A DNA stretch of 64,000 nt from an uncultured delta proteobacterium. GTDB lineage: Bacteria; Desulfobacterota; Desulfobacteria; Desulfobacterales; SG8-13. Position 1 is the stretch's first letter. Each line of letters starts with the position of its first letter. The stretch spans positions 62,001-126,000 of the forward strand of contig CAWKCK010000004.1 in assembly GCA_963848135.1 (NCBI GenBank), in the 5' to 3' direction. The notes under the pieces were generated by a model. It saw nothing but the letters and a program-made list of their open reading frames with translations. It searched no databases and was not told the DNA's origin. Made by a program: the position numbers and the translations under genes. Shown in pieces: positions 4,494 to 24,932 of this stretch.

Positions 4494-5684
4494 TCATCCG
4501 ATCTTCAGCACCAGTGCCCCGGCCGTGTCGCCTGCCGCACATCCGGAAAAGAGCATGTATCCACCGCCCTTCATGACCGTCTCCTCGATACCTTCGATAA
4601 TCAACCGAGCGGCTGTGGGCGCCTGGGGGTGTCCGAATATCAACGAGCTGCCGAAATTGTTGAAACCGTTGACATCGATGTTCATTTGAGCGGCCATGTA
4701 GATATCATTGGCAGCAAAAGGGTTATGGGTTTTAATGACGTTCGTGTCGGCTATACCGATACCGGCTTTGTCCAGCGCCATCTGGGCCGCCGGGACCACC
4801 GCCATGGCCATATGTGCCTTCTTGGTGCGGTGGTACCCATAAGAAATCACTTGTATTTCAGCGTTTTTATTGGTGCTCAGCTCGCGTGCTTTTTCACGCG
4901 TTGTCACCACCACTGCACAATTGCCGTCTGCCGGATGCGTCTGGGAGCCGAAGGTAATCGTACCGTTCGGCAGCACCGGACGCAGACCGGCCAAACCCTC
5001 GGCCGTCGTTTCCATGACGCCCTCGTCAGCCGCGACGGTCAGCGTCTTTTTGCGGGAAACTTTTACTTCGATCGGGAACATGTAGCGTTTCTGAAAGGCC
5101 CGATCATCCGCCAGGGCATCTTTGTATTGCTCGTAGCGACGCAGGGCCACGGCATCACACTGTTCCCGGGTGATGGTGGCTTCTTTGGCAACATTTTCGG
5201 CGGTTTGAACCATCGAGGTGCCACCCCACGGATCAAAGCCGAAGTGGTCCATAACCCAGTTCTCGGAGATCACTTGGCCACCGGGACCCGCCGGATTGGG
5301 CCAAATGGTATGGGGCCCGTTGGAGCAACGGTCTACGGCCAGGGTGTAACAATTTTCGTAAAGGCCGGTTTCGATGCCCACGGCGGCTTGAAAGATACCG
5401 GTGGTTGAAGTGGAACAGGCCTGGCTGATTAAAAGACCAGGTGTGGCGTCAGCACCGATCAGCGCCGAGGCCCAAGGGCCGCCATAAAACATCTTCGGTT
5501 GGCCGACAGTGACGCCCAGAATCAGGTAATCGAACATCTTGGCATCCCACTCTTGAGCCGCCAGCCAGCGCTGTGAGGTTTCAGCCCCCAGGGTAATGGC
5601 ATTCACATTGGCCAGCGTTCCTTGCCAGCGAGCAAACGGCGTACTGTAATAGCCGCCGTACGGAATATAGGCTTTGGTCAACAT
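4494..5684 (-). CDS. Thiolase family protein with atypical HNPF fingerprint
   Basis: ACSTS, THNPFA, FGHP, GCAAG; start at ATG 5684 behind GGAGG. Confidence 0.85.
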   Translation of the reverse strand: MLTKAYIPYGGYYSTPFARWQGTLANVNAITLGAETSQRWLAAQEWDAKMFDYLILGVTVGQPKMFYGGPWASALIGADATPGLLISQACSTSTTGIFQAAVGIETGLYENCYTLAVDRCSNGPHTIWPNPAGPGGQVISENWVMDHFGFDPWGGTSMVQTAENVAKEATITREQCDAVALRRYEQYKDALADDRAFQKRYMFPIEVKVSRKKTLTVAADEGVMETTAEGLAGLRPVLPNGTITFGSQTHPADGNCAVVVTTREKARELSTNKNAEIQVISYGYHRTKKAHMAMAVVPAAQMALDKAGIGIADTNVIKTHNPFAANDIYMAAQMNIDVNGFNNFGSSLIFGHPQAPTAARLIIEGIEETVMKGGGYMLFSGCAAGDTAGALVLKIG

Positions 5685-5785
5685 CAATAAAGTCCTCCAC
5701 AATAAAGGGTCATTGTTACACGATAGTGCGAATCAATACGCATCCTCGAATTGTCTATAGCACTATTCGGCTGATAATTATTCTT

Positions 5786-7366
5786 CTATTTTTTTTCTTT
5801 TTTTACGTTTTGGCCGAACTTTTCCCGGAGCTTTCGGTGAAGAATCTTGCCGGTCGGGGTCCGCGGCATTTCGTCCGACTCGATGAATACCACTTCCTTG
5901 GGCCGCTTGAATCCGGCCAGTTTGTCTTTGCAACAATCCCGAATAACATCGTCGTTGATATCTTCTTCACTAAAACCCGGCTTGGGCACGACAACGGCAA
6001 TAACCTTTTCGCCCCATTTTTCGTCTGGAAGACCGATACAGGCGCAGTCGAATACGCATTCGTGACTGCCGACAATCTCCTCAACCTCGCTGGGATAGAC
6101 ATGCTCGCCGCCGGTGATGATCATGTTGTCTTTGCGATCGACAATTTCGAAAAAACCGTCTTCATCACGCCGGGCCATGTCGCCGGCCGAAAACCATCCG
6201 TCGCGAAACGACGCTGCGGTATTTTCAGGTAGCTTGTAGTACTCTTTGAACAACATCGGACCGCGGGAGAATAGTTCGCCGACTTGGCCAACCCCGACTT
6301 CTTTGTCGTTTTCATCGAATAATTTGACGAAATCGGTTCCCAGGCTTTCGAAACCGATGGAACCCAATTTTGTCATCTGAAACTCCGGCTTGAGAACGGT
6401 GACGATACCGGCTTCTGTCGATCCGTAACCTTCGTACAGTTCCACACCGGGAAAGAATTCCATAATGGCCAGCTTCATTGCTTTGCGTACCGGTGCCGAA
6501 GAACAAAGAAGTTTGCGGATTGAGCTGACGTCGTATCTTCGTGCCTCTCCGGGGGCGTTCAGAATCAGGTTGTAGTGGGTTGGAATCAGGGAGATAAAAG
6601 TGATTTTTTCCTGCTCGACAATCTCCAAAATTTCTTCTGCCTTGAATGACTGTGCCGGGTGAATATATACCGAGGCACCGATGTAAGTGAAGGTGAAGGT
6701 GAAGAATGTGGAGTTGATGTGGCACAGCGGCATGACATTCAGGCAGATGTCGTGCTCGTTGAAACCAAAATCGACGGCGTTGATCAGGTAAAATGCCACA
6801 TGGGAGGCATGCGTCCGCACCACGCCTTTCGGTTTTCCGGTGGTACCGGACGTGTAAATAAGAATCCAAGTATCTTCAGGGTCAACCGCAGATAACGGTT
6901 CGCTGTCCGGCGCATTGGCGATAATCTCTTCATAAAGGTGGTAACCAGACTCTCCCTCACCGACAACGATGTAGTTCTGCGGGGGAATATTTTTAAGACC
7001 GGACCGTATCGGTGCCACTGTGCCGGTGAACTGGTCGTGCACCACGAGCGCTTTGGCATCGGAATTACCGAGGATGTATTCAACATCAGCGCTGACCAGG
7101 CGGAAATTAATCGGAACGATGACAAGGCCGGTTTTAGCCGTTGCCAGATACATTTCAATAATTTCGATACTGTTTTCCAGCAATACCGCTACTTTATCGC
7201 CCTTGGAAAGCCCCAGGGCAAGCAGGCTATGGGCCAGCTGGTTGACGCGCCGATTCGTTTCAGGATAGGTGAAGCGTCGTCGACGATCTTGCAGGCATAC
7301 CGTTTCGGGAAACTTCTTGGCGTTGACTTTCAGATTTTGCCCCAGATTCATCCAACAGGATGACAT
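5786..7366 (-). CDS. AMP-forming acyl/aryl-CoA ligase
   Basis: YTSGTTGKPKG, YGSTE, SAGD, DRKDNMIITGGE, PRTPTGK; start behind GGAGGTG. Confidence 0.9.
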   Translation of the reverse strand: MSSCWMNLGQNLKVNAKKFPETVCLQDRRRRFTYPETNRRVNQLAHSLLALGLSKGDKVAVLLENSIEIIEMYLATAKTGLVIVPINFRLVSADVEYILGNSDAKALVVHDQFTGTVAPIRSGLKNIPPQNYIVVGEGESGYHLYEEIIANAPDSEPLSAVDPEDTWILIYTSGTTGKPKGVVRTHASHVAFYLINAVDFGFNEHDICLNVMPLCHINSTFFTFTFTYIGASVYIHPAQSFKAEEILEIVEQEKITFISLIPTHYNLILNAPGEARRYDVSSIRKLLCSSAPVRKAMKLAIMEFFPGVELYEGYGSTEAGIVTVLKPEFQMTKLGSIGFESLGTDFVKLFDENDKEVGVGQVGELFSRGPMLFKEYYKLPENTAASFRDGWFSAGDMARRDEDGFFEIVDRKDNMIITGGEHVYPSEVEEIVGSHECVFDCACIGLPDEKWGEKVIAVVVPKPGFSEEDINDDVIRDCCKDKLAGFKRPKEVVFIESDEMPRTPTGKILHRKLREKFGQNVKKEKK

Positions 7367-7381
7367 TTCCACCTCCATTGA

Positions 7382-7453
7382 AAAGCTCAAAACTGAAGGC
7401 TGAAAGCGATAGGTTCCGTTGCCTCACACGTCTCCGCTTTGCGCTTTCAGGCT
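7382..7453. repeat. Inverted 7-bp periodic mini-array forming an intergenic stem-loop
   Basis: aaagctc-aaaactg-aaggctg-aaagcga ... cgctttg-cgctttc-aggct. Confidence 0.45.
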
Positions 7454-9599: not shown

Positions 9600-10850
9600 T
9601 TATGTTTTTCTTTCTTCGAGTTGTTCAATAAAGGCTTCGACGTTGGTCTTGGTCTGCTCGTCGGACACCAGTCGCATGTCATTGAGATCGCCGTTGATAA
9701 TCAGGCTCGGGATTCCGGTGATCTTTTCCATTCTCTGGGGCATGCCATAGCGGCAGTTGGAATTGTTGGGGCACGTTTTGGCATCGTGGTAAATGATACC
9801 GTCCACCTTGAAGAAATCGAGCATGTTTTTAATGTATTTTTCCTTGGTCTCGTCGGCACGAACAATAAACAGCTCGGTGTACGCGCGGGCCATGCTCGTA
9901 AACGGATCGTCCGGATCGAAAGCACTGAAAATCCAGCTGTTGCAGTAGGTGGAGGCCAGAACACACGTTTGCAGTTCGGCGAACATTTTTGAGTGCGTAC
10001 TGAGGCGACCCCAAACCGGCATGCCTTCCCAATAGATTCGAAAACGTTCGCCCTCCACGGCAGCTTCACCGGCCGTGATGCGGTCTTTCAGTTCGGCCAG
10101 CAGCAGCTGATAGTAATCCACCGCCGCCGGGGTGCCCCGCAATACAACCGCCGGCCCCATGTGAATGGTCCCATCGTAAAATGTCAGGGGTGAGGGCAGG
10201 GAGGCCGCGGTGTCGAGGACTTCCTTCCAGAGATTGGAGCACTGCCGGGAAAGGGTTAGGACCCGTTTCAATTCTTCGGGATCGAATTTATTGCCTGATA
10301 TTTCCTCCAGAGGGGCGATGAGGGCCTCCATCTGCCGGGCAATCGATTGCACGTGCTTGTCTAAAACATCCCCGACGCCACGGTGGGTATGGATACCCAG
10401 CAAGGGTACATTGAATTCCCTTGCGTACCATGCGAACCAGTCTTGAACATCACGGCACTGGTTGGTGTTGTATACCAAAACGTCCGGTTTGGGGACTTCC
10501 TCGATTCCTGGATAGGCTTTGGCGAGGGGGGTAACGCCTTTCAGATAGGCGCCGACATCGGCTGTCAGATAGGAGCAGATATCTGGAGAATATCCCATAG
10601 CATTCGCCGTCGGAATCATATCCGTTGCCATCCGCGATGCGCCGAGCATTGCCCCATGGTTTTCTGGAAAGTGGACCAGGAATCCCATGGCGCGCAGGAT
10701 TTCGGCTGGTCCCACGCTCGTACACCAGGCGATCTTCCTTTTGCGGGTCTTTGCGGCGTCATTCAACTCGTAAAAGTATTCGGCCATAATACGCCCCATC
10801 TCTCTGGAGGCCTTGATTGGTTTGCGTAAGACTTTTTTTTCTTCAGCCAT
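9600..10850 (-). CDS. 2-hydroxyacyl-CoA dehydratase / class I benzoyl-CoA reductase family subunit (alpha-type, HgdA/FldB-like)
   Basis: AWCTS, FPENH, GYSPDICSY, NQC, AKTC cluster ligands, C-terminal TNVEAFIE. Confidence 0.85.
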   Translation of the reverse strand: MAEEKKVLRKPIKASREMGRIMAEYFYELNDAAKTRKRKIAWCTSVGPAEILRAMGFLVHFPENHGAMLGASRMATDMIPTANAMGYSPDICSYLTADVGAYLKGVTPLAKAYPGIEEVPKPDVLVYNTNQCRDVQDWFAWYAREFNVPLLGIHTHRGVGDVLDKHVQSIARQMEALIAPLEEISGNKFDPEELKRVLTLSRQCSNLWKEVLDTAASLPSPLTFYDGTIHMGPAVVLRGTPAAVDYYQLLLAELKDRITAGEAAVEGERFRIYWEGMPVWGRLSTHSKMFAELQTCVLASTYCNSWIFSAFDPDDPFTSMARAYTELFIVRADETKEKYIKNMLDFFKVDGIIYHDAKTCPNNSNCRYGMPQRMEKITGIPSLIINGDLNDMRLVSDEQTKTNVEAFIEQLEERKT

Positions 10851-10871
10851 ATCGTATTCCTTTCAATTGGC

Positions 10872-11161: not shown

Positions 11162-11950
11162 TTATTCCATTGCGTATAATGCCGCTCCGATCGCCCCGGT
11201 CAATTGCGGGTGGTCCGGTACCAGAATTTTTTGTCCCGCAATCTCAGCGGTCATCGTCACCAGGTAGGGGTTGTGTTCGACGACCCCCCCGGTCATGACG
11301 ATGTTTTCGGTCAAAGAATCCATTTCCAGCACTCTTTTAATCACGGAGTAGAAGACGCCTTTGACGATGTCGGTCACCCGTTTGCCATGTCGGATGTTTT
11401 CGAGAACTTCGGTGGCGGAAAAAACAGTACAAAAACTGCCGAGTTTGACCATGTTTTCTGACTGTTGCGCCAGTCCATCCATCTGTTCCAACGGTATGTC
11501 CAATCGCGTGGCCATTTCCTCCAAGAAGGCACCGGTACCGGCAGCGCATTTGCGGTTCATTTTGAAGCTGGTCCGGCGTCCCTGGGCATCGAGTTTTACA
11601 ACTTTATTGTCTTGTCCGCCGATATCGATGATCGTAATCGATTGGGGATAATAGAGATAGCATCCCTTCGCGTGACAGCCGATTTCGGTGCGGCTGTCAT
11701 CGGCATAGGCAACGTTTTTGCGGCCGTAACCGGTGGATACCGATTTCGCGACCGCTTCGCGAGTCGCGCCGGCCATATCGAGGGCAAGATTCAAACAGGT
11801 TTGGGCCGTGGCGGTGAAATCGATGCCGGATTTTTTTACAGCGAATCCGAGAAGGCTCTTTTCGGAATCGAGCACGGCGACTTTTGTACGCGAAGAACCG
11901 ACATCGGTGCCTACATAGAGTTTTTGTACGGTCATATCGACTGGCTGCAT
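11162..11950 (-). CDS. ATP-dependent acyl-CoA dehydratase activase (HgdC/FldI/BcrAD-type ASKHA ATPase)
   Basis: GTDVGSSRTK, STGYGR, IDIGGQD, MNRKCAAGTG, FCTVF, MTGGV. Confidence 0.92.
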   Translation of the reverse strand: MQPVDMTVQKLYVGTDVGSSRTKVAVLDSEKSLLGFAVKKSGIDFTATAQTCLNLALDMAGATREAVAKSVSTGYGRKNVAYADDSRTEIGCHAKGCYLYYPQSITIIDIGGQDNKVVKLDAQGRRTSFKMNRKCAAGTGAFLEEMATRLDIPLEQMDGLAQQSENMVKLGSFCTVFSATEVLENIRHGKRVTDIVKGVFYSVIKRVLEMDSLTENIVMTGGVVEHNPYLVTMTAEIAGQKILVPDHPQLTGAIGAALYAME

Positions 11951-12897
11951 CAGAATCCAGATTCGAGCCCTTTAACCAGCGCCCGCAGGGTGATGTTGAA
12001 TGGCGTTTCGATACCGGCCTGTGCCCCATAGGCGACAAACTTGCCGTTGATAAAATCGACTTCCGTTCGGCGATGGGCCTCGATGTCCATAAGCATCGAG
12101 GGTTTATGGTCGCCGGCCTTGCTCATATATTCGATGCCATGGGGATAGAAATTCCACCCCAGCTCTATTTCGTTGGCGCGTGCGACCTTGACGCATTCTT
12201 TTATGAGAGAGTCGACTATCTGAAATACAATCGGATCGGTCATGGCTTGAGCCATGGTCAACCCGGTTACGGCGCAGACGGGGTTCATACAGGCATTCAG
12301 GATCGCTTTGCGCCAGACCATCGAAATGATTTGGTCGGTATGCTCTGTGATCAAATCGCATCGGGTCAGCACCTTTGCGATGGCAGCCGCAGCCGGTCCC
12401 GATCCGGGAGCCAGTTCCTGGAGATAGTGCGGTGGATGGTGAAACGGCATTCGGACGTGCGCCGGGCCTGCGAGGCCGCAACCATAGTTGACCACCGCTC
12501 TCAGCACCGGTTCGTCACCCAGTGCTTCGGCAAAAACCAGTTCGGTATCGATACCGTTCTGCCAGCTGACAATATACTGGCCTGGCCGATGAAATCCCTC
12601 GATGGCCGATGCGATCAGAGCATTTGCGTTAGCCTTTACAGTAATGAAGATGACATCCGGCGGGTCGTTAGCGAGATCGTCGATATTGGTGGTCACTCGG
12701 GTAACGGGTTGTCGGAGAGTTTCGGCACCTTCTATGATGATCCCCGGATCGAGTGCCGGCTTGAGAAGGTCAGGGATGACATCGCACAGGGTGACCTCGT
12801 TTCCCTTGCTGGCCAGGAAGGCGGCCACGATGCAACCAACGGGTCCAGCCCCCACAACAGCGAACTTCTGCGGATGAAAATCGGCATGTTCAACCAT
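11950..12897 (-). CDS. Ketopantoate reductase (PanE/ApbA) family 2-oxoacid reductase
   Basis: GAGPVG, ITVKA, QNGI, WRKAILNACMNP, SMLMD, TEVDFING. Confidence 0.88.
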   Translation of the reverse strand: MVEHADFHPQKFAVVGAGPVGCIVAAFLASKGNEVTLCDVIPDLLKPALDPGIIIEGAETLRQPVTRVTTNIDDLANDPPDVIFITVKANANALIASAIEGFHRPGQYIVSWQNGIDTELVFAEALGDEPVLRAVVNYGCGLAGPAHVRMPFHHPPHYLQELAPGSGPAAAAIAKVLTRCDLITEHTDQIISMVWRKAILNACMNPVCAVTGLTMAQAMTDPIVFQIVDSLIKECVKVARANEIELGWNFYPHGIEYMSKAGDHKPSMLMDIEAHRRTEVDFINGKFVAYGAQAGIETPFNITLRALVKGLESGF

Positions 12898-14673: not shown

Positions 14674-15270
14674 TCAGTTCACCGCGGCGGCCGTGCTGTA
14701 GCCGAAGTCGAAGGCCGCCAGGTTGGCTGATAGAAATGCCGGCTTTGTTTTGCGTTTCATGGCTTCCTTGACCTGTTCGGACGTGAGGGGTAGCACGCCG
14801 GTTTGAATCAGGGCGCCCAGGAGAACCATGTTGACTGACAGGGGATTTCCGGCATCCTGAGCCAGCTTGGCCGCGTTGAAAGCAATAAGTTTGGCCGTTT
14901 TAGATCGGATCAGGTTCTGCAGCTGTTTCAAGTCCGGATAGACGCCCTTTCCGATATTCACGGTAAACGGCATCAATGGTGCCAGGTTGGTAATCACTAC
15001 CGTGCCGGCGTTGCATTTGCAGAGGGCACGCAGGGTTTCCGCCGGTTCGAAACCCACTAATATGTCGGCCTCACCATCGGCGATGATGGTACTCCTGGCC
15101 TCTCCGAAGATAAGGGCGGATTCCACCACGCCGCCTCTCTGGGCCATACCGTGTATTTCGCTCATCTGCAATGGCATATCGGCCATCAGGGCGGCCTCTC
15201 CCAGCACACTTGAGGCCAGGAGATTCCCCTGACCGCCGACAGCGACAATGATCAGTCGTTTGGTATCCAT
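14674..15270 (-). CDS. iorB: Indolepyruvate:ferredoxin oxidoreductase beta subunit
   Basis: VGGQG, SEIHGMAQRGGVV; adjacent to iorA. Confidence 0.9.
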   Translation of the reverse strand: MDTKRLIIVAVGGQGNLLASSVLGEAALMADMPLQMSEIHGMAQRGGVVESALIFGEARSTIIADGEADILVGFEPAETLRALCKCNAGTVVITNLAPLMPFTVNIGKGVYPDLKQLQNLIRSKTAKLIAFNAAKLAQDAGNPLSVNMVLLGALIQTGVLPLTSEQVKEAMKRKTKPAFLSANLAAFDFGYSTAAAVN

Positions 15271-15313: not shown

Positions 15314-17179
15314 CTATGCTGTGGCCTTTTTTTTCTTTAGAGGTAAAATGGCATTCTCCGGACAGATCTGTGCGCAGACAGCGCACCCGGTGCATAGATT
15401 CGGGTCGATTTTTATCCGTTCGTTCCAGACATAGAAAGCCGGGCAGGCAAGGTAGTCCATGCAATCCCGGTGATCTTTGCACTTGGCGGTCACCTCGAAA
15501 GGTTTTCGACGTGGAAGTTTGAGCCCCTGAGCATACAGGGCACATATTTCCTCTGAAATAATGACCGAAACGCCTTTGAATTCGATGGCCTCTCGGATCG
15601 CATCGATGCTTTTCTTGACCTTGTATGGTTTGATCGTCGTGACATGGGGAACTCCAACGGCTCGCACGACAGCCTCTATTGAGACCCTGCCGAATCCGTC
15701 CATGCCGATCTGTTGCATGTCCACGCCGGGGTGGGGTTGATGACCGGTCATGGCCGTGGTGCCGTTATCGAGGATGACAAGGGTGAAGTTGTGATTATTG
15801 AAAACGGCGTTGATGAGACCGGGAATGCCCGAATGAAAAAAGGTCGAGTCGCCGATAAATGCGATCACTTTTTTATCGGTCACCTTCGAAAACCCGCCGG
15901 AGGTACCTACCGAAGACCCCATGCAAATCAAAAAATCGGCCGAGGACAGCGGCGGCAGCAACCCGAGTGTGTAACAGCCGATGTCAGTGGGATAAATGGT
16001 TTCCATCCCCTCGGCGGCTTTACGGACCTCGTAGAACGTGGCGCGGTGAGAACACCCGGCGCAGAGGGTCGGCGGGCGCTGGGGGATTTCCGGTACATCG
16101 GAGAGGTCCGGTACCGCCTTGGCGTCATTTCTCACGCCGAAGAATGCGGCGATATTGGCTCTGACCTGGGCGGGATTGTATTCATAGAGACGCGAGAACA
16201 GATCGGGCGCCTTACCCTTGATACTCAACGTCAGTCGGGCTTCCTGGGCCAGGGCTTTGAGTGACTCCTCCAGATATGGTTCACCTTCTTCGACCACCAG
16301 AACTTTTTCGCATTGCCCTAAAAATCCTTTGATGAGAGCCGGGGGAAGGGGATGCGAAAAACCGATGCGAAGAACGCACACCTGCGCTTCTATCTGTAAT
16401 TCTTTTACTGCATCTTCGACATAATTGAAGCTGACGCCGTTGCAGACGATCCCCCATTTTCCGTTGCCTTCGACGATATTGTAAACGGAGGTCTCAGCCA
16501 TATCCCGGGCCGCATCGAAATTTTTAAGCAGCTTGACGTGCAGGTTGCGGGATACTGCCGGAACTGTCACCAGGTTCATGGGATCCTTCTTAAAGTCGCC
16601 TTTTGTGACCGGTTGCTTTATTTTGCCCAACGCGACGACACCACTGGAGTGGTTGATTCGGGTAGTGGTTCGGAACAGCACTGGCTCCTGCAGTTTTTCC
16701 GAGAGATCGAAGGCATAGGCCACCATCTCTTTGGCCTCCTGCACCGAAGAGGGCTCGAGCATGGGGAGGCCCGATAGCTTGGCATAGTACCGATTGTCCT
16801 GTTCGTTCTGGCTGGAAAACATGAAAGGGTCGTCGGCCGACAGGATTACCATGCCACCCTTCACGCCCACATAGGCCAGGGTCATCAGGGCATCGGCAGC
16901 GACGTTCACACCGACGTGTTTCATGACGCACATCGAGCGGACACCCGCGTTGGCCGCTGCCGCAGAGACTTCCATGGCCACTTTTTCGTTGGTACTGTAT
17001 TCGAAATACAAATCGCTTTCCTGCGACATTTGGAAAAAATTGAGCGAGAGTTCCGAAGAGGGTGTGCCGGGATATGTGCTGGCAAACGCGACCCCAGCTT
17101 CTATGGCACCCCGGGCGATAGCCTCGTTGCCCAGCAGAAGCATTTTTTCACCCGGTTTATCAGTGAGTAGTTTATGCAT
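15314..17179 (-). CDS. iorA: Indolepyruvate:ferredoxin oxidoreductase alpha subunit
   Basis: LLGNEAIARG, YPGTPSSE, SSQNEQD, LCAGCSHR, TPP motif GDSTFFHSG, C-terminal ferredoxin CTGCAVCAQICP. Confidence 0.93.
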   Translation of the reverse strand: MHKLLTDKPGEKMLLLGNEAIARGAIEAGVAFASTYPGTPSSELSLNFFQMSQESDLYFEYSTNEKVAMEVSAAAANAGVRSMCVMKHVGVNVAADALMTLAYVGVKGGMVILSADDPFMFSSQNEQDNRYYAKLSGLPMLEPSSVQEAKEMVAYAFDLSEKLQEPVLFRTTTRINHSSGVVALGKIKQPVTKGDFKKDPMNLVTVPAVSRNLHVKLLKNFDAARDMAETSVYNIVEGNGKWGIVCNGVSFNYVEDAVKELQIEAQVCVLRIGFSHPLPPALIKGFLGQCEKVLVVEEGEPYLEESLKALAQEARLTLSIKGKAPDLFSRLYEYNPAQVRANIAAFFGVRNDAKAVPDLSDVPEIPQRPPTLCAGCSHRATFYEVRKAAEGMETIYPTDIGCYTLGLLPPLSSADFLICMGSSVGTSGGFSKVTDKKVIAFIGDSTFFHSGIPGLINAVFNNHNFTLVILDNGTTAMTGHQPHPGVDMQQIGMDGFGRVSIEAVVRAVGVPHVTTIKPYKVKKSIDAIREAIEFKGVSVIISEEICALYAQGLKLPRRKPFEVTAKCKDHRDCMDYLACPAFYVWNERIKIDPNLCTGCAVCAQICPENAILPLKKKKATA

Positions 17180-17219
17180 AGCAGCTACCTTTTTATGGGT
17201 CAGTTTATGGGTCAATGGC

Positions 17220-18290
17220 TTAAGGAATCAATACCGGTCGCTCCTTGATCTGGTGGCTGTGAACCATTTCGAATACCGCATTGATTTCGGATAGAGGGAA
17301 TGTTTTGACAAAAGGCCCGATTTTGACTTTGCCCTCCAGGACCAGATCGAGAACCGGTTGGTAGTATTTCGGTTGGCAACCCCAGTTCCCGCGGGCTGTG
17401 GCGTGGAAGGCCATCAGATTCGACAACCGGATGTCCACGGTGTCCATTGTGAAACCGACCACTGCCAGAGAAGCACCGAACGTCAGAAGACCGAACGCCG
17501 TTTTTTGCCCGGCGGCAGTTCCTGAAGTCTCGAAAATTTTCCATTCGGTGCGGCGCCGGCCCTGATCCTTGACGAATCCAGAGACGGCTTTGCGCAGATC
17601 CTTGAAGGGGATCTCCTTTGCATTGAAGGTTTTGTCGACGTAAGGGGCAAGGGCCTCCAGTTTGTCGGCGTCGATGTCGATCGCTACAACGGCGGCGCCA
17701 AAACTCTTTGCGATTTGAGCACCAAAGCCGCCAACACCGCCAACGCCGATAAAAATGGCGGTGTCTTCGGCACTGAGTCCCGATTCCACCACGGCTTGGT
17801 AGGGGGTCGTAATCGCATCGGCAATGACGGACAATTCGGCCAGGGAGACACCGGAGCCGCCCGTCGGCGTGCCGTTCGCTTCCGTCGGTACCGCGCACAA
17901 CTGGGCCGCCGGAACAACGATGTGGGAAGCAAAACCACCCTGGATGTCGTTTCCCGGCATTTTTTGAACGGCGCAGATATTATCGAGGCCGCGTCGGCAG
18001 ACATCACACGTACCGCAAGGCATGACGGCCGGTACAATGACGGCTTTCCCTTTATAATTTTCGGTTCCTGGACCGCAGGCTTCGACAATCCCGCTGATTT
18101 CATGGCCCAATGTCAGCGGCAGCGGTGATTTGGTGCGCACCCCATCGTAGTAAAACCCCAGGTCGGTGTGACACACGCCGCAGCCGATTACGCGCAGTAG
18201 GACCTCGCCGTCGCCTGGCTGCGGCAAAGAGCTTTCGACGCACTCAAGCGGTTTTTGCAGGGCAACCATTTGCCAGGATGTCATCGCCAT
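17220..18290 (-). CDS. had: 6-hydroxycyclohex-1-ene-1-carbonyl-CoA dehydrogenase (Zn-dependent ADH family)
   Basis: CGVCHTDLGFYYDGVRT, GHEISG, KMPGND, RLSNLMAF, GNWGC; clustered with oah and dch. Confidence 0.88.
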   Translation of the reverse strand: MAMTSWQMVALQKPLECVESSLPQPGDGEVLLRVIGCGVCHTDLGFYYDGVRTKSPLPLTLGHEISGIVEACGPGTENYKGKAVIVPAVMPCGTCDVCRRGLDNICAVQKMPGNDIQGGFASHIVVPAAQLCAVPTEANGTPTGGSGVSLAELSVIADAITTPYQAVVESGLSAEDTAIFIGVGGVGGFGAQIAKSFGAAVVAIDIDADKLEALAPYVDKTFNAKEIPFKDLRKAVSGFVKDQGRRRTEWKIFETSGTAAGQKTAFGLLTFGASLAVVGFTMDTVDIRLSNLMAFHATARGNWGCQPKYYQPVLDLVLEGKVKIGPFVKTFPLSEINAVFEMVHSHQIKERPVLIP

Positions 18291-18374: not shown

Positions 18375-20414
18375 TCAGGCGCCTTTGAACTCAGGGCGTC
18401 GGCGTCCTACCGATGACAGACCCTCGAGGGCGTCGGCCGTGGAAAAGATATCCTGCAATTGTTCCAGTTCGATCTCGACCGCTTCGGTCATCGGTTTGCC
18501 GACTTGCCGATCGATGATGGCATTGGCCGCTTTCAGCGCCAGCGGTGCCTTGAAACTGATGATTTTAGCCGTTTTAGCAGCCAGTGCGTCATCGACTCCT
18601 TCAGGCGGTTTTCCTGATAACAGACGCGTCACGTTCGCGGGAGATCCCAAAGTAGCCAGTGCTTCAAAGCGTGCGGGAATATCGCGCCGGAAATACTTGT
18701 CCGGTTTCCCTTGCGCGATAAAATCCTCGAGGGCCGCATCGATTTCGATTGGTGCGACAAGGCGGGTGATGATGCCAAGGGCATGGGCGTTTTCTGCGCT
18801 GATCGGCATACCGGTGAAGACGTAGTATTTGGCCAGCTCCGGTCCCACGTGACGGGCGAGTCGCAACATACCGCCCAGACCGGGGTAGATGCCGATACCG
18901 GTTTCAGGAAATCCCATCGAGCCGGCCGGGGTGGCGACGATCGCCTGGCAGGCCAAGGCCAATTCACTGCCGCCGCCAAGGGAGAGACCGTCCAGCAGAG
19001 CGATCGTCAGTTTGGGGCAATTTTCGATCTGCAGCAGAAGTTCGTGTCCTTTGCGGGTAAAGTCGACGATTTCGGGGATCTTGCCGGACTTGATCTTGTT
19101 GACGAAATAGCGGATGTCGGCGCCGGCCACAAAAGCCTTGCCGGCACCCTGGAGAACGATCGCTTTGACAACCGGATTCGACTCGGCTTCTGTAAACCTC
19201 GCCGTCAGTTGAGCCACCACCGCTTCGTTGAGTGAGTTCATGGCCTCAGGACGGTTGAGTGTAATGTTGGCAATGCCGTTCTTGATGGCCAGGTCGACGT
19301 AGCTGAAAGAAAAGGGTTCACCGGTGGTTTTTTGCCGCGAAAGGATTGCCGGCATTTTGAAATCCGGGTACTTGCGCACAACGGTATCGACCGCCGCGTA
19401 GGTGGCGTCGATGCCGATCTTGTTCATGATTTCGAAAGGGCCCATGATCCAGCGCAGCCCGATTTTAGCACCGCGATCGGTATCCTCGATCGAAGCCACA
19501 CCCTCATCGACCAAGGCGGCGGCCACACCGAGGCAAACGCCGTAGAATCGTTCGATTACCGGTTGAAGTTTCGATTCGTCGACATCACCGTCGAGATTCC
19601 AGTTCACCCCTTTTTCTTTTTGAGATTTCAGCAGTTCACAGGGGGCATAGAACGGGCCCAGTTCTTCGCCGAGGGTCGTCGCCGCGTGCACGGCGATCGG
19701 GATACCGGTCACGTTCATCAACATGAAAGGTCCCATGCCGATTTTGAAGGCCTTTTTGGCGGCCTCTTCGATGGTCGGAATATCAGCCAGATTTTCCTCG
19801 AGCATTCGGGCCGCTTCGTTCAGGAAAGGGACGAAAAAACGGTTGACCGCAAAGCCGGGTGCGTCTTTGACGACAATGGCGGTCTTGCCATGCAGTTTGG
19901 CGGCCAGGAGGGACTTTTCGAGGGTGATCTGGCTCGTTTTTTCGTAAGGGATGACTTCGAGCAGGCGATTTTTGGCCGGGTGGTAGAAGTAATGCAAGCC
20001 GATGAAGCGGTCGGGCCGGTTTGTTTGGTCGGCAAAGTCGCGAACGTAGAAACTTGAGGTGTTGGTTGCCAGGATCGTCTTTTCGTCACAAGCTTGGTCA
20101 AGCTTTCTGAATAGGTCGGATTTGACGTTTTTGTCTTCGAAAACGGCCTCAATGACCAGATCTGCATCCGCTACTGCAGCGTAATCGGTGGCTCCCGTCA
20201 CGCGAGAAAGAATATCGTCGACTTGTCCCGGCGTAAAAATTTTTCGCTCGACACCTTCCTTGAGCATCTTTTCAATCGTATCCATGCCGCGCTGGACAAA
20301 TTCGTCTTTCATGTCCACCATGACAACCTGAATGCCCTCTTGGGCGAACTTCTGAGCGATGCCGCTGCCCATATTACCGGCACCGATCACGCCGACTTTA
20401 TTGATCTGTGACAT
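18375..20414 (-). CDS. 3-hydroxyacyl-CoA dehydrogenase / enoyl-CoA hydratase fusion
   Basis: GAGNMGSG, EAVFE, TNTSS, PGFAVNR; C-terminal crotonase AFVAGADI, LGGGSELA, PETGIG. Confidence 0.9.
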   Translation of the reverse strand: MSQINKVGVIGAGNMGSGIAQKFAQEGIQVVMVDMKDEFVQRGMDTIEKMLKEGVERKIFTPGQVDDILSRVTGATDYAAVADADLVIEAVFEDKNVKSDLFRKLDQACDEKTILATNTSSFYVRDFADQTNRPDRFIGLHYFYHPAKNRLLEVIPYEKTSQITLEKSLLAAKLHGKTAIVVKDAPGFAVNRFFVPFLNEAARMLEENLADIPTIEEAAKKAFKIGMGPFMLMNVTGIPIAVHAATTLGEELGPFYAPCELLKSQKEKGVNWNLDGDVDESKLQPVIERFYGVCLGVAAALVDEGVASIEDTDRGAKIGLRWIMGPFEIMNKIGIDATYAAVDTVVRKYPDFKMPAILSRQKTTGEPFSFSYVDLAIKNGIANITLNRPEAMNSLNEAVVAQLTARFTEAESNPVVKAIVLQGAGKAFVAGADIRYFVNKIKSGKIPEIVDFTRKGHELLLQIENCPKLTIALLDGLSLGGGSELALACQAIVATPAGSMGFPETGIGIYPGLGGMLRLARHVGPELAKYYVFTGMPISAENAHALGIITRLVAPIEIDAALEDFIAQGKPDKYFRRDIPARFEALATLGSPANVTRLLSGKPPEGVDDALAAKTAKIISFKAPLALKAANAIIDRQVGKPMTEAVEIELEQLQDIFSTADALEGLSSVGRRRPEFKGA

Positions 20415-21291: not shown

Positions 21292-21391
21292 TGCTAATCA
21301 TCCTTTTTTCTTAATTTGGACAACGGCGGGAGCAAATGGTGTGGCAGCCACAACGGGAACCTGCCGCCTCTACGCCTTGAACGCCTGGGGC

Positions 21392-21826
21392 CTATGCTTT
21401 TTTAAACACGTAATTCAACTGTCCGTTGGGCAAGGCGTTTGCGGTGGTGACCATTTCCATACCCACATTCAATTCACTTTCCTTTAAACCGGTGTCAATC
21501 CTTCCGAACACCTTAAAATCGCCGTAATCGAGCAGGGCAATACAGTAAGGCACATCGTCCTGGAATCCGACCGGAGCAAACTCCAGCCGGCTGTAAGTGA
21601 CCAGGCGGCCCTTACCGTTAATCTCGAACCATTCCATATTACCCGTCAGACACTGGTAGCAGTCGGCCCGCGGAGGGAAGAATACCAGACCGCAGTCCTT
21701 GCAGCGGGTTCCGGTCACCTTGCCTTCCTCCAAGTGGCCGATAAAGTCGTTTACCTTTGTAATACCGGTAAAGCTCACCGTTCCGAATTTATTGAAGCGG
21801 TCGTCCACCTCTTTCACTTTACTCAT
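21392..21826 (-). CDS. DUF35-type Zn-ribbon/OB-fold protein (thiolase partner)
   Basis: CKDCG..FFPPRADCYQC, GRLVTYS; overlaps the thiolase stop codon. Confidence 0.88.
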   Translation of the reverse strand: MSKVKEVDDRFNKFGTVSFTGITKVNDFIGHLEEGKVTGTRCKDCGLVFFPPRADCYQCLTGNMEWFEINGKGRLVTYSRLEFAPVGFQDDVPYCIALLDYGDFKVFGRIDTGLKESELNVGMEMVTTANALPNGQLNYVFKKA

Positions 21827-22995
21827 GACGCCCTCCCGAGAATGGTCACGTTGCCGTAGAGGCCAACGCCGCCGATGTTGTGAATCAGTCCAATGGCAGG
21901 ATCCTTGACTTGAATGTCACCGGCCTCGTCCCTGAGCTGCAGGACAATCGTTCGAATCTGAGAGCCACCGGTGGCGCCGATCGGATGCCCTTTTGACAAC
22001 AATCCGCCGTCGACATTGACCGGTATGCTACCTTCCTTGTAAGTTTCTTTACCGCGAATCAGATCCTTGCCTTCTCCGGGTTTTGCAAAACCCAGATTCT
22101 CATAAGCCATCATCTCGGCAATAGTGAAGCAGTCGTGGACCTCGGCCACATCGACCTGCTTGGGACCAATGCCAGCCATTTCGTAGGCCTGCTGAGCAGC
22201 CTCACGCGCTGCGGAAAGACCCGTAAAAAGGTCTCTACCGGCCAGGTTGACACTGGCCGTTGCCGCGCCGGTTCCAAGGATCCAGACTGGTTTTTTGCAG
22301 AATGTCTTGGCTTTTTCCTCGTTGGCCACGATGATGCATGAACTGCCGTCGGCATTGGCACAGCAATCCCCAACGCGCAGGGGGCTGGCAACCGGCCCAG
22401 ACATGCGGTTGTTCGGGTCGGACAGCATGCCGGTGGTTACCGGCTTGCGGTAAACCGCACGATCGTTCAGTTGACCATAAGTGGCGGCTTTCTCACGGAT
22501 CAGCGCCAAATCTTCCAGGGCCGTTCCAAAGGCGTCCATATGGGCCCGGGCATACATGGCATAATACGCCGGCATCATGGTACCGAAGGGGCTTTCCCAC
22601 TGAATGTCGGCGCCGCGGCCCATGCGTTCCTGGGATTCTGAAGAGGAGATTTCGGACATCTTTTGAAAACCGATCACGGCCACGACGCTGTGAAGGCCCG
22701 ATTTTACAAGGGAATAGGCCATTCGCAGCCCGGTGCTGCTCGACGAACACAGGCTTTCCACATAAAAAGTCGGCTGAGGGTTTAGGCCGAGGTACTCTGC
22801 CAGAACCCCGGCCGGTGACCGCTGTTTGTCGTATTCAGGCGCTGAGCAAACCACCGATGCATCGATGTCGGCGGCCGTAATACCGGCATCGTTGACGGCC
22901 TCCTTGAAGCCTTCGAATACCAACTCTCTAATAGAACCCGGATATTGCCGGACGAAGGTGCTTTGTCCGACACCGATAATGGCTGCTTTTTCCAT
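21823..22995 (-). CDS. SCP2-type thiolase
   Basis: LCSSS, EVHDCF, GGLLSKGHPIGATG, HNIGG. Confidence 0.88.
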   Translation of the reverse strand: MEKAAIIGVGQSTFVRQYPGSIRELVFEGFKEAVNDAGITAADIDASVVCSAPEYDKQRSPAGVLAEYLGLNPQPTFYVESLCSSSSTGLRMAYSLVKSGLHSVVAVIGFQKMSEISSSESQERMGRGADIQWESPFGTMMPAYYAMYARAHMDAFGTALEDLALIREKAATYGQLNDRAVYRKPVTTGMLSDPNNRMSGPVASPLRVGDCCANADGSSCIIVANEEKAKTFCKKPVWILGTGAATASVNLAGRDLFTGLSAAREAAQQAYEMAGIGPKQVDVAEVHDCFTIAEMMAYENLGFAKPGEGKDLIRGKETYKEGSIPVNVDGGLLSKGHPIGATGGSQIRTIVLQLRDEAGDIQVKDPAIGLIHNIGGVGLYGNVTILGRAS

Positions 22996-23033: not shown

Positions 23034-23783
23034 TCAAATATACTGACCGCCGTCGACCTTGATGATTTCACCGGTGATATGCCGGGCCTTGTCGGATGCC
23101 AGGAAGGCGACGACATTGGCCAGATCCTCCGGAAGACCCACCCGTTTGAGAACGATTTCGGCCATGGCCATATCGATGATCTTGTCGCGGGCCTCCGAAT
23201 CCCTGAGCATGGCGGTTTCGATCAGCCCCGGTGCCACCGCATTGACGTTCACGCCGAATGCGCCCAGTTCCTTGGCCAGGGCTTTTGTCAATCCAATGAT
23301 GCCGGCCTTCGAGGCTGAATAGTTCATCTGGCCGAATTTACCGCGCAGACCGTTGATTGAAGTGATATTGATGACCTTGCCGTACTTTTGATCTTTGAAG
23401 ATCGGCGCCGAGTGGCGGATAAAGTTAAAGTATCCCTTTAGGTTGACTTCGAGGACCCGGTCCCATTGCTCTTCGGTCATTTTCCAGGACACGCCATCCC
23501 AGTTCATTCCGGCGTTGTTGACCAGAATCTGAAGGCTGCCGAAGGCGTCCATAGCGGCCTGAACCGTGGCGGCGGCTTCGGTAAAAGAAGAGATGTCGCA
23601 TTTGACAGGCAGGGCTTTGCGCCCCAACGCCTGAATGTCATCGGCATATTGGTGGGCGTCCTCTTCGTGGCTGCGGTAGGTCAGGCACACGTTGGCGCCC
23701 TCACGGGCGAGTTCAAGGGCAATCGCTGCTCCGATGCCTTGAGATCCGCCGGTTACGATTGCATTTTTTCCTTCAAGAAGCAT
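23034..23783 (-). CDS. Short-chain dehydrogenase/reductase (FabG-like, possibly BzdZ-like)
   Basis: TGGSQGIG, NNAG, YSASK, VAPG, VDGG. Confidence 0.9.
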   Translation of the reverse strand: MLLEGKNAIVTGGSQGIGAAIALELAREGANVCLTYRSHEEDAHQYADDIQALGRKALPVKCDISSFTEAAATVQAAMDAFGSLQILVNNAGMNWDGVSWKMTEEQWDRVLEVNLKGYFNFIRHSAPIFKDQKYGKVINITSINGLRGKFGQMNYSASKAGIIGLTKALAKELGAFGVNVNAVAPGLIETAMLRDSEARDKIIDMAMAEIVLKRVGLPEDLANVVAFLASDKARHITGEIIKVDGGQYI

Positions 23784-23798
23784 ATGGATCTCCTCTTT

Positions 23799-24932
23799 TC
23801 AGTCCTGCGGTTTGCCGAGTACAGCCGCCATGAATTCAACGTCAAAGGCGTCGCTGTTGGCCATCCGTCGTCTGTACTCGATGAAATCGATGGTGTCTTT
23901 TCCGGTGATCTTCTTGGTGTTGAACGCATTGAAGCCCAGGTAGGCTTCGGTGTTCATGTTGGCCGCCAACCAGTGGCGATTGATCACCTTGGCCTGATCC
24001 CAGAAAAATTTCTTTTTAAGCCGGATGCCCTCAACACTCTTGATGAGGCAGCCGGGGAACAAGTTGGTATATGTCCAAAGGATTTTGTCGACCTCGGCAT
24101 CCAGCCGATCGAAATCGGTCTGAGCGGTTTTGACGATCTCGCGCGCTTTTTTGGCCTCATCACCGGATTTGAATTCTCCGTAAACGATTTCACCGTCATC
24201 GACGTAACTCCCGGTGATAACCGCCGGGTTGCGGAGCCATCCGCTATCCTGTTTGATGACCGGTACGCATTTTGAGATCAGCCCAAGCCGCTGCATTTTG
24301 TAGGCGCTCCACATTTCGCAGGAGACGCAGTTCCACATGGCCAGTTCCATGGGGAGCATCCAGGGCAGAAAATCAGAGCTACCGCCGTCTGGTGCCGACC
24401 CATGACGCGGGCCGGCCTGCCCGAAGATGGCCAGATCGCTCGATATGGTGGTATCGCATGCCATGCCAATCTCCTGGCCCCCGGCGACGCGCATGCCGTT
24501 GACGCGACAAATGGTCGGTTTTTTACAGGAGAGGATGCTGTCGACCATTGCATTGAACAAATCCATGTAGACGCCATACTCGTTGGGTCTTCCGGCATAA
24601 TACTCGGCATATTCTTTGGTATTACCGCCGGTGCAAAACGCCTTGTCGCCCATACCGGTGAAGACGGCGGCGACGACAGAATTGTCGGCCGAGGCCCGCT
24701 GAAAACCGGCGATGACGCCTTTGACCATCTCGGTCGTATAAGAATTGTATTGTCGGGGATTGTTGAGGGTGATCCAGGCGGAATGCATGCCGTCGATGGG
24801 ATGGCCCTTTGGGTCTCGAATCGGCTTTTTTTCAAATATGACTCCTGGCGCTTGATCGGTAAAATGTTCATCGCCCCAGAGGTAGTGGTTTTTGATACCG
24901 GACTCTCTTGGTAACCATTTTAGATCGGCCAT
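23799..24932 (-). CDS. oah: 6-oxocyclohex-1-ene-1-carbonyl-CoA hydrolase (BamA/Oah)
   Basis: NNPRQYNSYTT, FCTGGNTKEYAEYY, RVAGGQEIGMACD, FGQAGPRHGS, WLAANMNTEA. Confidence 0.95.
   Translation of the reverse strand: MADLKWLPRESGIKNHYLWGDEHFTDQAPGVIFEKKPIRDPKGHPIDGMHSAWITLNNPRQYNSYTTEMVKGVIAGFQRASADNSVVAAVFTGMGDKAFCTGGNTKEYAEYYAGRPNEYGVYMDLFNAMVDSILSCKKPTICRVNGMRVAGGQEIGMACDTTISSDLAIFGQAGPRHGSAPDGGSSDFLPWMLPMELAMWNCVSCEMWSAYKMQRLGLISKCVPVIKQDSGWLRNPAVITGSYVDDGEIVYGEFKSGDEAKKAREIVKTAQTDFDRLDAEVDKILWTYTNLFPGCLIKSVEGIRLKKKFFWDQAKVINRHWLAANMNTEAYLGFNAFNTKKITGKDTIDFIEYRRRMANSDAFDVEFMAAVLGKPQD

Follow-up and report, generated by a model that had tools for sequence, protein, structure and literature searches.

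A candidate aryllactyl-CoA route with a single-subunit HGD-D protein beside benzoyl-CoA ring-opening genes in an uncultured member of the Desulfobacterales

Clostridium sporogenes possesses a phenyllactate dehydratase, FldABC, along with the initiator FldI and the dehydrogenase FldH. In the excerpted text of PMC13416013, which cites Dickert et al. (2002) on the Fld system, the conversion of phenylpyruvate to cinnamoyl-CoA and benzoyl-CoA via a phenyllactyl-CoA dehydratase is floated for a benzene degrader, and a 'singular' FldB-like gene is mentioned. How phenylalanine and phenylacetate reach benzoyl-CoA in strict anaerobes without the Pad enzymes is stated to be unresolved in the excerpted text of PMC5109826. 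Here, we describe a cluster of 16 genes in a 64,000-nucleotide (nt) stretch of DNA from an uncultured delta proteobacterium of the Desulfobacterales (GenBank GCA_963848135.1, contig CAWKCK010000004.1), hereafter the window (G000:C4:62001-126000; genome assembly of 6.03 Mb, 98.65% complete). The cluster contains a module built around a single HGD-D-family protein, and this module is a concrete candidate for that conversion.

Physiological work on related sulfate reducers provides the background. According to the excerpts of PMC5109826, Desulfococcus multivorans and D. toluolica are without PadB and PadEFGHI, yet phenylacetate supports their growth, and D. multivorans also grows on phenyllactate. 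With phenylacetate and phenylpyruvate, a TRAP system appears in D. multivorans together with a CoA ligase, a dehydrogenase, a hydratase and a thiolase, the four enzymes being formed specifically with these substrates. Its IorA3B3 is specific for phenylpyruvate and is found at a lower level with phenylacetate, which the authors take as gratuitous induction. Three genes were assigned to the step 'phenyllactate to phenylpyruvate', and the steps to benzoyl-CoA were left unclear (PMC5109826, excerpts). Beta-oxidation enzymes formed with phenylacetate would be chemically meaningful only if the side chain had three carbons.

The cluster comprises 16 open reading frames (ORFs), all on the minus strand and running from position 24932 to 4494 in the ORF listing of the window. 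The order and common direction given in a first-pass annotation, which had been made from the letters without database searches, were confirmed by this listing and by family assignment of the 16 proteins with Pfam and NCBIfam profiles. The arrangement is not due to chance, and its order is conserved in relatives. In the direction of the genes, the features are as follows.

23799..24932, minus strand: oah, 6-oxocyclohex-1-ene-1-carbonyl-CoA hydrolase, 377 amino acids (aa); TIGR03200 558 bits, cut-off 464
23034..23783, minus strand: SDR, 249 aa, probably a 3-hydroxypimeloyl-CoA dehydrogenase; adh_short / FabG-like
21823..22995, minus strand: SCP-x/BbsB-type thiolase, 390 aa; Thiolase_C_1, NF004720 400 bits
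21392..21826, minus strand: DUF35/ChsH2 zinc-ribbon and OB protein, 144 aa, thiolase partner; PF12172 and PF01796
20521..21291, minus strand: enoyl-CoA hydratase, 256 aa, most likely dienoyl-CoA hydratase (dch); ECH_1
18375..20414, minus strand: 3-hydroxyacyl-CoA dehydrogenase/enoyl-CoA hydratase (HAD/ECH) fusion, 679 aa; 3HCDH_N, 3HCDH and ECH_1
17220..18290, minus strand: had, 6-hydroxycyclohex-1-ene-1-carbonyl-CoA dehydrogenase, 356 aa; TIGR03201 469 bits, cut-off 339
15314..17215, minus strand: iorA, indolepyruvate/arylpyruvate:ferredoxin oxidoreductase (IOR) alpha, 633 aa; TIGR03336 763 bits, cut-off 651
14674..15270, minus strand: iorB, 198 aa; NF005323 203 bits and TIGR03334 191 bits, both slightly under their cut-offs
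13221..14528, minus strand: PaaK-like phenylacetate-CoA ligase, 435 aa; TIGR02155 548 bits, cut-off 646
11950..12897, minus strand: PanE/ApbA-family 2-oxoacid reductase, 315 aa, proposed (R)-aryllactate dehydrogenase; PF02558 and PF08546
11162..11950, minus strand: HgdC/HadI-type ATP-dependent activase, 262 aa; TIGR00241 203 bits, cut-off 125
9600..10850, minus strand: single alpha-type HGD-D protein, 416 aa, proposed aryllactyl-CoA dehydratase; PF06050 230 bits
7452..9530, minus strand: ADP-forming acyl-CoA synthetase, fused alpha-beta, 692 aa; CoA_binding, Succ_CoA_lig and ATP-grasp_5
5786..7390, minus strand: AMP-forming acyl-CoA ligase, 534 aa; AMP-binding
4494..5702, minus strand: divergent thiolase, 402 aa, proposed 3-oxo-3-phenylpropionyl-CoA thiolase; Thiolase_N/C

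The reading that we favour, by a modest degree of confidence, is that the cluster forms one catabolic unit in which a ring-opening half is joined to a side-chain feeder. The first part (24932-17220) would be the ring-opening half of the anaerobic benzoyl-CoA pathway, with the dch-like hydratase, Had and Oah, and then the SDR and the thiolase/DUF35 pair for the C7 dicarboxyl-CoA. Ring reduction itself would be carried out by the tungsten-type BamB-I encoded on contig C5. The second part (12897-4494 with the HAD/ECH fusion) would be the feeder. In this part, the PanE-family reductase would convert phenylpyruvate, arising from phenylalanine or from external phenyllactate or phenylpyruvate, into (R)-phenyllactate, and the ADP-forming synthetase and/or the AMP-forming ligase would produce phenyllactyl-CoA in place of the clostridial CoA-transferase. 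At the expense of ATP, the activase would inject a single electron into what is probably a homodimeric, alpha-only [4Fe-4S] HGD-D enzyme, which would remove water via a ketyl radical to yield cinnamoyl-CoA. A hydratase, a dehydrogenase and a thiolase would then convert cinnamoyl-CoA to benzoyl-CoA and acetyl-CoA, and the genes of the cluster for these three activities may serve either the side chain or the C7/C4 intermediates of the ring. The general series from arylpyruvate to (R)-aryllactate, aryllactyl-CoA and cinnamoyl-CoA, and by beta-oxidation to benzoyl-CoA, appears to be rather more probable than improbable. Of the side-chain route in the first-pass annotation, the segment from phenylpyruvate through phenyllactate, phenyllactyl-CoA and cinnamoyl-CoA to benzoyl-CoA fits a conserved unit found beside or with benzoyl-CoA genes in several phyla. 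IorAB and PaaK would tie the phenylacetate/phenylacetyl-CoA pool to phenylpyruvate, in either direction of IOR.

The ring-opening assignment is supported by the equivalog models for oah and had, both of which were passed, and oah is the sole match above the cut-off in the genome. The SDR-thiolase-OB unit also adjoins oah in a Thermoplasmatales genome, and in Chloroflexota loci the gene immediately upstream of HGD-D encodes the HAD/ECH fusion. A complete BamBCDEFGHI-like set is encoded on contig C5, where its neighbours carry Hdr-, FlpD- and Nuo-like domains and BamB scores 1232 bits to 4z3w_A. Because a true BamB is encoded elsewhere in the genome, the HGD-D enzyme is not needed as a ring reductase. 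No class I benzoyl-CoA reductase (BCR) was found in the genome, which has one PF06050 gene only, and its PF01869 matches are confined to one small activase and one double-ATPase protein. The latter, a 1472-aa open frame at G000:C18:165404-166831 with two BcrAD/BadFG ATPase domains, is the sole other gene of the activase family.

In the 98.65%-complete genome, PF06050 matches no gene other than that of the HGD-D protein, and this profile search found no HadC-like beta subunit anywhere. Among 80 related loci, BLAST revealed a second HGD-D gene in only one. The radical dehydratase of the first-pass annotation is thus present, as a single gene rather than an alpha/beta pair, and the proposal of an FldBC-type enzyme did not hold, as the cluster encodes a lone alpha-like subunit and lacks a CoA-transferase of the FldA type. 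The best solved relative of the protein is HadB alpha (3o3m_A, 186 bits, 30% identity). In the same search of PDB sequences, MbdO scored 115 bits and BzdO 80 bits, and the beta chains gave no match at E ≤ 0.001. The score against NF052455 is 233 bits, with a cut-off of 750. An AlphaFold2 model (mean pLDDT 78.9) places the protein in the same order, with Foldseek TM-scores of 0.84 for HadB alpha (3o3m), 0.74 for MbdO and BzdO, 0.66 for the double-cubane cluster protein (DCCP) and 0.60 for beta subunits. An alignment of 25 orthologues from at least eight groups has a mean column identity of 79% and contains six invariant Cys. Three of these, C92, C132 and C360, align with Cys of HadB and are presumably ligands of the [4Fe-4S] cluster.

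Structure prediction is consistent with an enzyme made of two identical chains. Prediction of a two-copy complex of the HGD-D protein gave a score of 0.60, while the best of three controls reached 0.00. Among proteins of known structure, 20 of 30 pairs of one chain and 1 of 23 single chains reach the mark for such scores. The runs agreed in at least 88% of contacts, with partner pLDDT of at least 91. The predicted symmetric interface (residues 85-91, 129-141, 154-176, 332-334 and 356-372) surrounds conserved Cys. The model supports binding and does not show it; solved relatives are dimers, so the pass may reflect likeness to them.

The partner proteins fit the proposed steps to differing degrees. 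HgdC possesses two cluster-binding Cys per monomer, and at least 95% of 66 orthologues of the activase retain its C135 and C174. The PanE-like protein possesses both the N- and C-terminal ApbA domains and passes TIGR00745 (189 bits, cut-off 141). Its best PDB matches include 2ew2 (100 bits) and, as the third-best, 3wfi (87 bits), which we take to be a D-mandelate dehydrogenase. The presence of D-mandelate dehydrogenases in the PanE family is indicated by the title of Wada et al. (2008), as given among the references of PMC4580590. For the ADP-forming synthetase, the best PDB match is 8wzu, a 4-hydroxybutyrate-CoA ligase [ADP-forming] (443 bits), and the nearest solved relatives are 4-hydroxybutyrate- and 3-hydroxypropionate-CoA ligases. 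The 'ACD' gene of the first-pass annotation is present and must be read as this synthetase, not as an acyl-CoA dehydrogenase. The AMP-forming ligase is 64-75% identical to copies in Chloroflexota and Thermoplasmatota loci, and its best PDB matches are FadD5 (281 bits) and feruloyl-CoA synthetase (264 bits). By Pfam, none of the 16 cluster proteins contains a CoA-transferase domain, and the two ligases are present instead. The divergent thiolase scores 187 bits against TIGR01930, with a cut-off of 241.

The module is widely conserved. Relatives of the HGD-D protein number in the thousands, the best 120 being 75-93% identical. One cultured host is Desulfonema magnum, with a copy of 80% identity. 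Among contigs from one genome per species, 555 stretches encode such relatives, and the best 80 of these loci (67-94% identity) were examined by comparing every ORF in them with the 16 proteins of the cluster by BLAST. By record title, the hosts belong to the Desulfobacterales, other Thermodesulfobacteriota, Anaerolineae/Chloroflexota, Thermoplasmatota and other archaea, as well as Aminicenantes, Bacteroidota, Fibrobacterota, Gemmatimonadota, Sterolibacterium and a Hyphomicrobiales metagenome-assembled genome (MAG). Across Desulfobacterota, Chloroflexota, Thermoplasmatota archaea and others, the PanE-like protein, activase, HGD-D protein, ADP-forming synthetase and AMP-forming ligase are conserved with 65-80% identity. 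The partners were found as follows in the 80 loci and in the 41 of them that have at least 6 kb on both sides (full-flank loci).

activase: 68/80 loci, 39/41 full-flank loci
PanE-like reductase: 59/80 loci, 35/41 full-flank loci
ADP-forming synthetase: 54/80 loci, 28/41 full-flank loci
AMP-forming ligase (at least 60% identity): 41/80 loci, 22/41 full-flank loci
thiolase: 25/80 loci, 15/41 full-flank loci (after the ligase)
iorA: 15/80 loci, 7/41 full-flank loci
iorB: 18/80 loci, 9/41 full-flank loci
paaK: 18/80 loci, 8/41 full-flank loci
had: 13/80 loci, 8/41 full-flank loci
HAD/ECH fusion: 14/80 loci, 7/41 full-flank loci
oah: 5/80 loci, 2/41 full-flank loci

These counts indicate that the core consists of the activase, the PanE-like reductase, the HGD-D protein and the synthetase, possibly with the ligase. 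IOR and PaaK join this core mainly in the closer relatives of the window. Synteny, which the first-pass annotation had proposed to survey, is kept in such relatives. In L004, L010 and L012 the order HAD/ECH-had-iorAB-paaK-panE-activase-HGD-D-synthetase-ligase-thiolase is found with 78-94% identity, and in L079 the order is kept from the thiolase/DUF35 pair onward with 64-82% identity. More distant loci are rearranged. The Chloroflexota locus L077 contains an FlpD-like gene, a thioesterase, oah, had, HAD/ECH, HGD-D, synthetase and ligase, then PanE (by BLAST), activase, a CBS protein, a thiolase and a class I/II aminotransferase. In the Hyphomicrobiales locus L015, two HGD-D and two ATPase genes that resemble a class I BCR precede activase, HGD-D and synthetase, which are followed by a PanE-like gene, an aminotransferase, a second PanE-like gene, MobA, XdhC and a molybdenum-hydroxylase flavoprotein, probably of the 4-hydroxybenzoyl-CoA-reductase kind. 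The Thermoplasmatales genome G001 carries activase, HGD-D, synthetase, ligase, PanE-like reductase, a pyridine-nucleotide oxidoreductase, a ferredoxin, an AOR gene and a TrpB-like gene (L061). Its next 30 kb (L098, C1:1229001-1249000) contain a class-I-BCR-like set of two HGD-D and two ATPase genes, a ligase, an SDR, a thiolase, an OB protein, an amidohydrolase and oah, an apparently complete island.

Carriage of the module is linked to that of oah. In other phyla, oah (E ≤ 1e-60) occurs in 20 of 24 carrier genomes and in none of 14 control genomes; the four other carriers are represented by assemblies of 0.9-1.9 Mb. Within the phylum, 251 evenly sampled genomes, each at least 85% complete, were compared, carriers being defined by an HGD-D orthologue of at least 53% identity. 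The orthologue is present in 46 genomes and oah in 68; both are present in 40, HGD-D only in 6, oah only in 28 and neither in 177. Thus, oah is found in 40 of 46 carriers vs 28 of 205 non-carriers, an odds ratio of 42 among genomes that are related and not independent. Because the module is present in only 40 of the 68 oah genomes, it fits a feeder rather than a core step. Moreover, it co-occurs with a Bam-type reductase in the present genome and with class-I-like reductases in G001 and L015, which makes it unlikely to be the ring reductase itself.

Several observations weigh against this reading. The hydratase that the first-pass annotation named dch is the best TIGR03189 match of the whole genome, but at 153 bits it lies under the curated cut-off of 292 and does not pass the dch equivalog model. 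The PaaK-like ligase, the best of three TIGR02155 matches in the genome, is also under its curated cut-off, and iorAB and paaK adjoin the module in a minority of loci only (7-9 of the 41 full-flank loci). The HAD/ECH fusion and the thiolase might just as well process crotonyl-CoA derived from ring breakdown. Neither the alpha/beta heterodimer that defines known 2-hydroxyacyl-CoA dehydratase systems nor their CoA-transferase is present, and activation by a ligase costs ATP that clostridia spare via the transferase. Three of the six Cys of the HGD-D protein, C43, C204 and C303, are invariant in the clade and are not Cys in HadB. C43 aligns with Thr in HadB and with Cys in MbdO, C204 and C303 are peculiar to the clade, and the cofactor may thus differ. 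The oah gene is absent from 6 of the 46 carriers in the phylum sample (G054, G092, G125, G057, G127 and G260); these six have no ligase copy of at least 60% identity (best 49-50%), four of them are also without a PanE orthologue, and only one has a close one. The activase/HGD-D pair is surrounded by unrelated genes in such cases; in a sub-group of loci (L042, L046, L040 and L041) the pair, 76-78% identical, stands alone amid cytochrome c biogenesis, Tat and other unrelated genes. Finally, in the open-access full-text literature no paper was found that tests this route or a single-subunit dehydratase, or that assays any enzyme of the module.

The chemistry of the HGD-D protein could be read differently. 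With its activase, it might form a minimal ATP-driven reductase of the BCR or double-cubane kind that acts on an aromatic or conjugated CoA ester, such as a hydroxylated benzoyl-CoA. The BCR subunits and DCCP belong to the same family, and the six invariant Cys, including the one in common with MbdO and not HadB, the tight co-occurrence with oah and the single PF06050 gene of 7 of 24 carrier MAGs would be compatible with such an enzyme. Sequence and fold, however, are nearest to the dehydratase alpha subunit, the activase is single and of the dehydratase type, a PanE-family partner accompanies it in 35 of 41 loci, and known ring reductases are present, Bam in the genome of the window and class-I-like sets in G001 and L015. 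A reductase of this kind is therefore regarded as improbable. The idea of a minimal benzoyl-CoA reductase had been raised by the presence of oah in BamB-less archaeal carriers and was downgraded on the basis of the class-I-like sets there and the true Bam here. It is very unlikely that the module acts on a non-aromatic 2-hydroxy acid such as 2-hydroxyglutarate, as a link between glutaconyl-CoA and 2-oxoglutarate, or 2-hydroxyisocaproate. Glutaryl-CoA and glutaconyl-CoA do arise in the ring pathway, the best family match is the 2-hydroxyisocaproyl-CoA dehydratase alpha subunit, and the ADP-forming synthetase is nearest to hydroxy-acid ligases. Against these points stand the aromatic-specific neighbours, namely IOR, the PaaK-like ligase, AOR, aminotransferases and 4-hydroxybenzoyl-CoA-reductase-like genes, and a thiolase would make little chemical sense after hydration of glutaconyl-CoA.

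Other readings concern IOR and PaaK. In the full route of the first-pass annotation, phenylacetate would be activated by PaaK and carboxylated by reverse IOR with reduced ferredoxin to phenylpyruvate, which would proceed via phenyllactate and cinnamoyl-CoA to benzoyl-CoA and so replace Pad. This route extends the proposed feeder and does not exclude it, and we regard it as possible but tentative. The iorA gene is the only IOR gene in the genome and lies 4 nt from had, and close relatives, as well as L079, L034 and L073, share the order had-iorAB-paaK-panE. IOR is generally known to be reversible as an enzyme class. The proposed route would require two activations to be paid for, and iorA occurs in only 7 and paaK in only 8 of the 41 full-flank loci. 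The first-pass annotation took Pad to be absent from the window, and absence is shown only for the PadI type. No PadI-type phenylglyoxylate dehydrogenase was found in the genome (best 103 bits, cut-off 700), and among the 11 scanned of 15 molybdopterin-family matches none was named PadB and no PadB model surfaced. However, a cluster on contig C1 (G000:C1:27001-47000, L099) encodes IclR, a PaaK-like ligase, a molybdopterin enzyme (793 aa) with an Fe-S protein, another (749 aa) with an Fe-S protein, the TRAP transporter DctPQM and a second PaaK-like ligase. It is possibly a Pad-like or other arylacetate-oxidising system, which weakens the argument for a bypass. Growth of D. multivorans and D. 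toluolica on phenylacetate without PadB or PadEFGHI, and the formation with phenylacetate of the dehydrogenase, hydratase, thiolase and also IorA3B3, favour reversal, whereas Ior is highest with phenylpyruvate and its lower level with phenylacetate was ascribed by the authors to gratuitous induction (PMC5109826, excerpts).

It is also conceivable, though rather doubtful, that the two halves of the cluster are mere neighbours. IOR, PaaK, the ADP-forming synthetase and AOR would then run an oxidative branch from arylpyruvate via arylacetyl-CoA to arylacetate and ATP, with AOR oxidising aldehydes, or would feed an unknown or Pad-like route in which IOR perhaps converts phenylglyoxylate to benzoyl-CoA, and the HGD-D module would serve external aryl-lactates only. 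The pairing of IOR with an ADP-forming synthetase belongs to the archaeal scheme of peptide fermentation, and the IOR part of it is cited in the excerpts of PMC5109826. An AOR-family tungsten-type enzyme (646 aa), a ferredoxin, IclR and a second ferredoxin are encoded just outside the window, about 1-5.5 kb before its position 1 (G000:C4:56524-60767; L001:14524-18767). This AOR shares 61% identity with one from an Anaerolineae genome, where it adjoins PanE, activase and thiolase genes, and 40-41% with AORs beside the module in Thermoplasmatota. The molybdenum-enzyme cluster on C1 and the specificity of Ior for phenylpyruvate in D. multivorans would also suit such a separation (PMC5109826, excerpts). 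It would, however, leave the beta-oxidation enzymes that appear with phenylacetate (PMC5109826, excerpts) without a function, would leave unexplained why the module tracks oah across phyla with different ring reductases, and finds no PadI-type enzyme in the genome.

Within the cluster, intergenic distances range from -4 to 323 nt. The thiolase and DUF35 genes overlap by 4 nt and panE and the activase gene by 1 nt, and iorB lies 43 nt downstream of iorA. Two large gaps, between paaK and panE (323 nt, 12898-13220) and between the activase and HGD-D genes (311 nt, 10851-11161), are partly conserved in close relatives. A promoter scan of 4200-25400 in two parts gave 10 matches vs 8.0 ± 3.2 in shuffles and 5 vs 6.6 ± 2.2, and a terminator scan of this range gave 15 vs about 14, so that neither showed an excess. 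Rfam yielded no match over 4000-26000 at E ≤ 0.1, and the sigma-54 motif occurred at chance level (33 matches vs 31.1 expected). One-mismatch sigma-54-like sites in intergenic gaps at 13181-13196 and 21331-21346, both on the minus strand, are leads only. A repeat in the activase/HGD-D gap that was apparent in relatives was dropped, as it occurs only once in this genome.

Further genes lie around the cluster. The trpB2 and amino-acid ABC transporter genes named in the first-pass annotation are present nearby as claimed, the former being a possibly associated feature.

29577..31022, plus strand: TrpB-like pyridoxal phosphate (PLP) enzyme, 481 aa; NF009057 713 bits

This enzyme is 48% identical to the PALP gene beside AOR in the Thermoplasmatales locus L061, which may be a coincidence. 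A Liv-type ABC transporter, an AMP-forming ligase and an acyl-CoA dehydrogenase are also encoded just outside the window. The outside AOR shares 26-32% identity with the other AOR-family paralogues of the genome, including BamB, and its identification as a BamB was rejected because it scored 323 bits to the AOR 1aor vs 219 bits to BamB. Large fibronectin-type-III repeat proteins are encoded at 1680-4271 and 53843-55795, both on the plus strand, and the first stands between the aromatic cluster and the AOR region. The region C4:22001-42000 contains glycerol and sugar genes and was set aside as unrelated. Elsewhere, the genome encodes an alpha subunit of a NarG-type respiratory nitrate reductase (G000:C17:762251-767398, L085; TIGR01580 1871 bits) and is otherwise like that of a sulfate reducer, with a QrcB match. 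ArrA-like arsenate reductase genes on the short contigs C13 (13588-17937) and C14 (13676-18025; L093 and L094) have identical Pfam scores and offsets, and this pair is possibly a duplicated or doubly assembled region.

The module is of wider interest because it is widespread, occurring in 46 of the 251 sampled genomes of the phylum and in at least seven other groups including archaea. A broader proposal, which we put forward only speculatively, is that a homodimeric, alpha-only ketyl-radical dehydratase defines an unrecognised cross-domain route from phenylalanine and tyrosine to aroyl-CoA via aryl-lactyl-CoA and beta-oxidation, and in Pad-less Desulfobacteraceae also from phenylacetate after ferredoxin-driven carboxylation by IOR. 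If correct, the protein would be the first relative of the 2-hydroxyacyl-CoA dehydratases to work without a beta subunit, which bears on the evolution of this radical family and of the class I ring reductases, and the carboxylation route would close the gap left in the studies of D. multivorans and D. toluolica. In metagenomes, the gene is often annotated as 'BcrC/BadD/HgdB', a label that may inflate counts of class I benzoyl-CoA reductases.

Among the described systems, Fld shares the proposed chemistry, in which phenylpyruvate is converted through (R)-phenyllactate and phenyllactyl-CoA to cinnamoyl-CoA by a [4Fe-4S] enzyme of the HGD-D family with an ATP-dependent activator. In contrast to the FldB and FldC pair, the cluster has one alpha-type subunit. 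The CoA-transferase FldA has its counterpart in the ADP-forming synthetase and AMP-forming ligase, and the Fld reductase belongs to the D-2-hydroxyacid dehydrogenase family, while that of the cluster belongs to the PanE family. Moreover, the Fld product is reduced to phenylpropionate, while that of the cluster is proposed to be oxidised to benzoyl-CoA. More generally, the 2-hydroxyacyl-CoA dehydratases (HgdAB, HadBC, FldBC and LcdAB) share with the module the HGD-D fold and an activator of the HgdC/HadI/FldI type, which is present in 39 of the 41 full-flank loci. Of these, HadBC with HadI (PDB 3o3m and 3o3n) provides the best match in sequence and fold, with three aligned Cys in common. It differs in possessing the beta subunit HadC, which has no similar gene in the genome of the window, and in lacking the three extra invariant Cys. 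The class I BCRs (BzdNOPQ and MbdONPQ; PDB 8s02 and 9g87) and DCCP (6eno) also share the fold and are driven by an activase-like ATPase. However, class I BCRs possess two HGD-D and two ATPase subunits, as seen in L098 and L015, where the window genome has one HGD-D gene, and the fold match to BCR and DCCP (TM 0.74 and 0.66) is weaker than that to HadB alpha.

The Pad pathway of denitrifiers (PadJ, PadBCD and PadEFGHI) performs the same task of converting phenylacetate and phenylalanine to benzoyl-CoA, and the cluster possesses a ligase similar to PaaK/PadJ. Pad proceeds by alpha-oxidation and decarboxylation (PMC5109826, excerpts), whereas the route proposed here would go through a C3 side chain and use beta-oxidation. 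The 'catabolic hotspot' of D. multivorans, from the same bacterial group, contains Ior, a CoA ligase, dehydrogenase, hydratase and thiolase genes and 'phenyllactate' genes between the bam and ring-opening genes. Its likeness to the present cluster is one of described gene content, and its phenyllactate genes were read by the authors as leading to phenylpyruvate (PMC5109826, excerpts).

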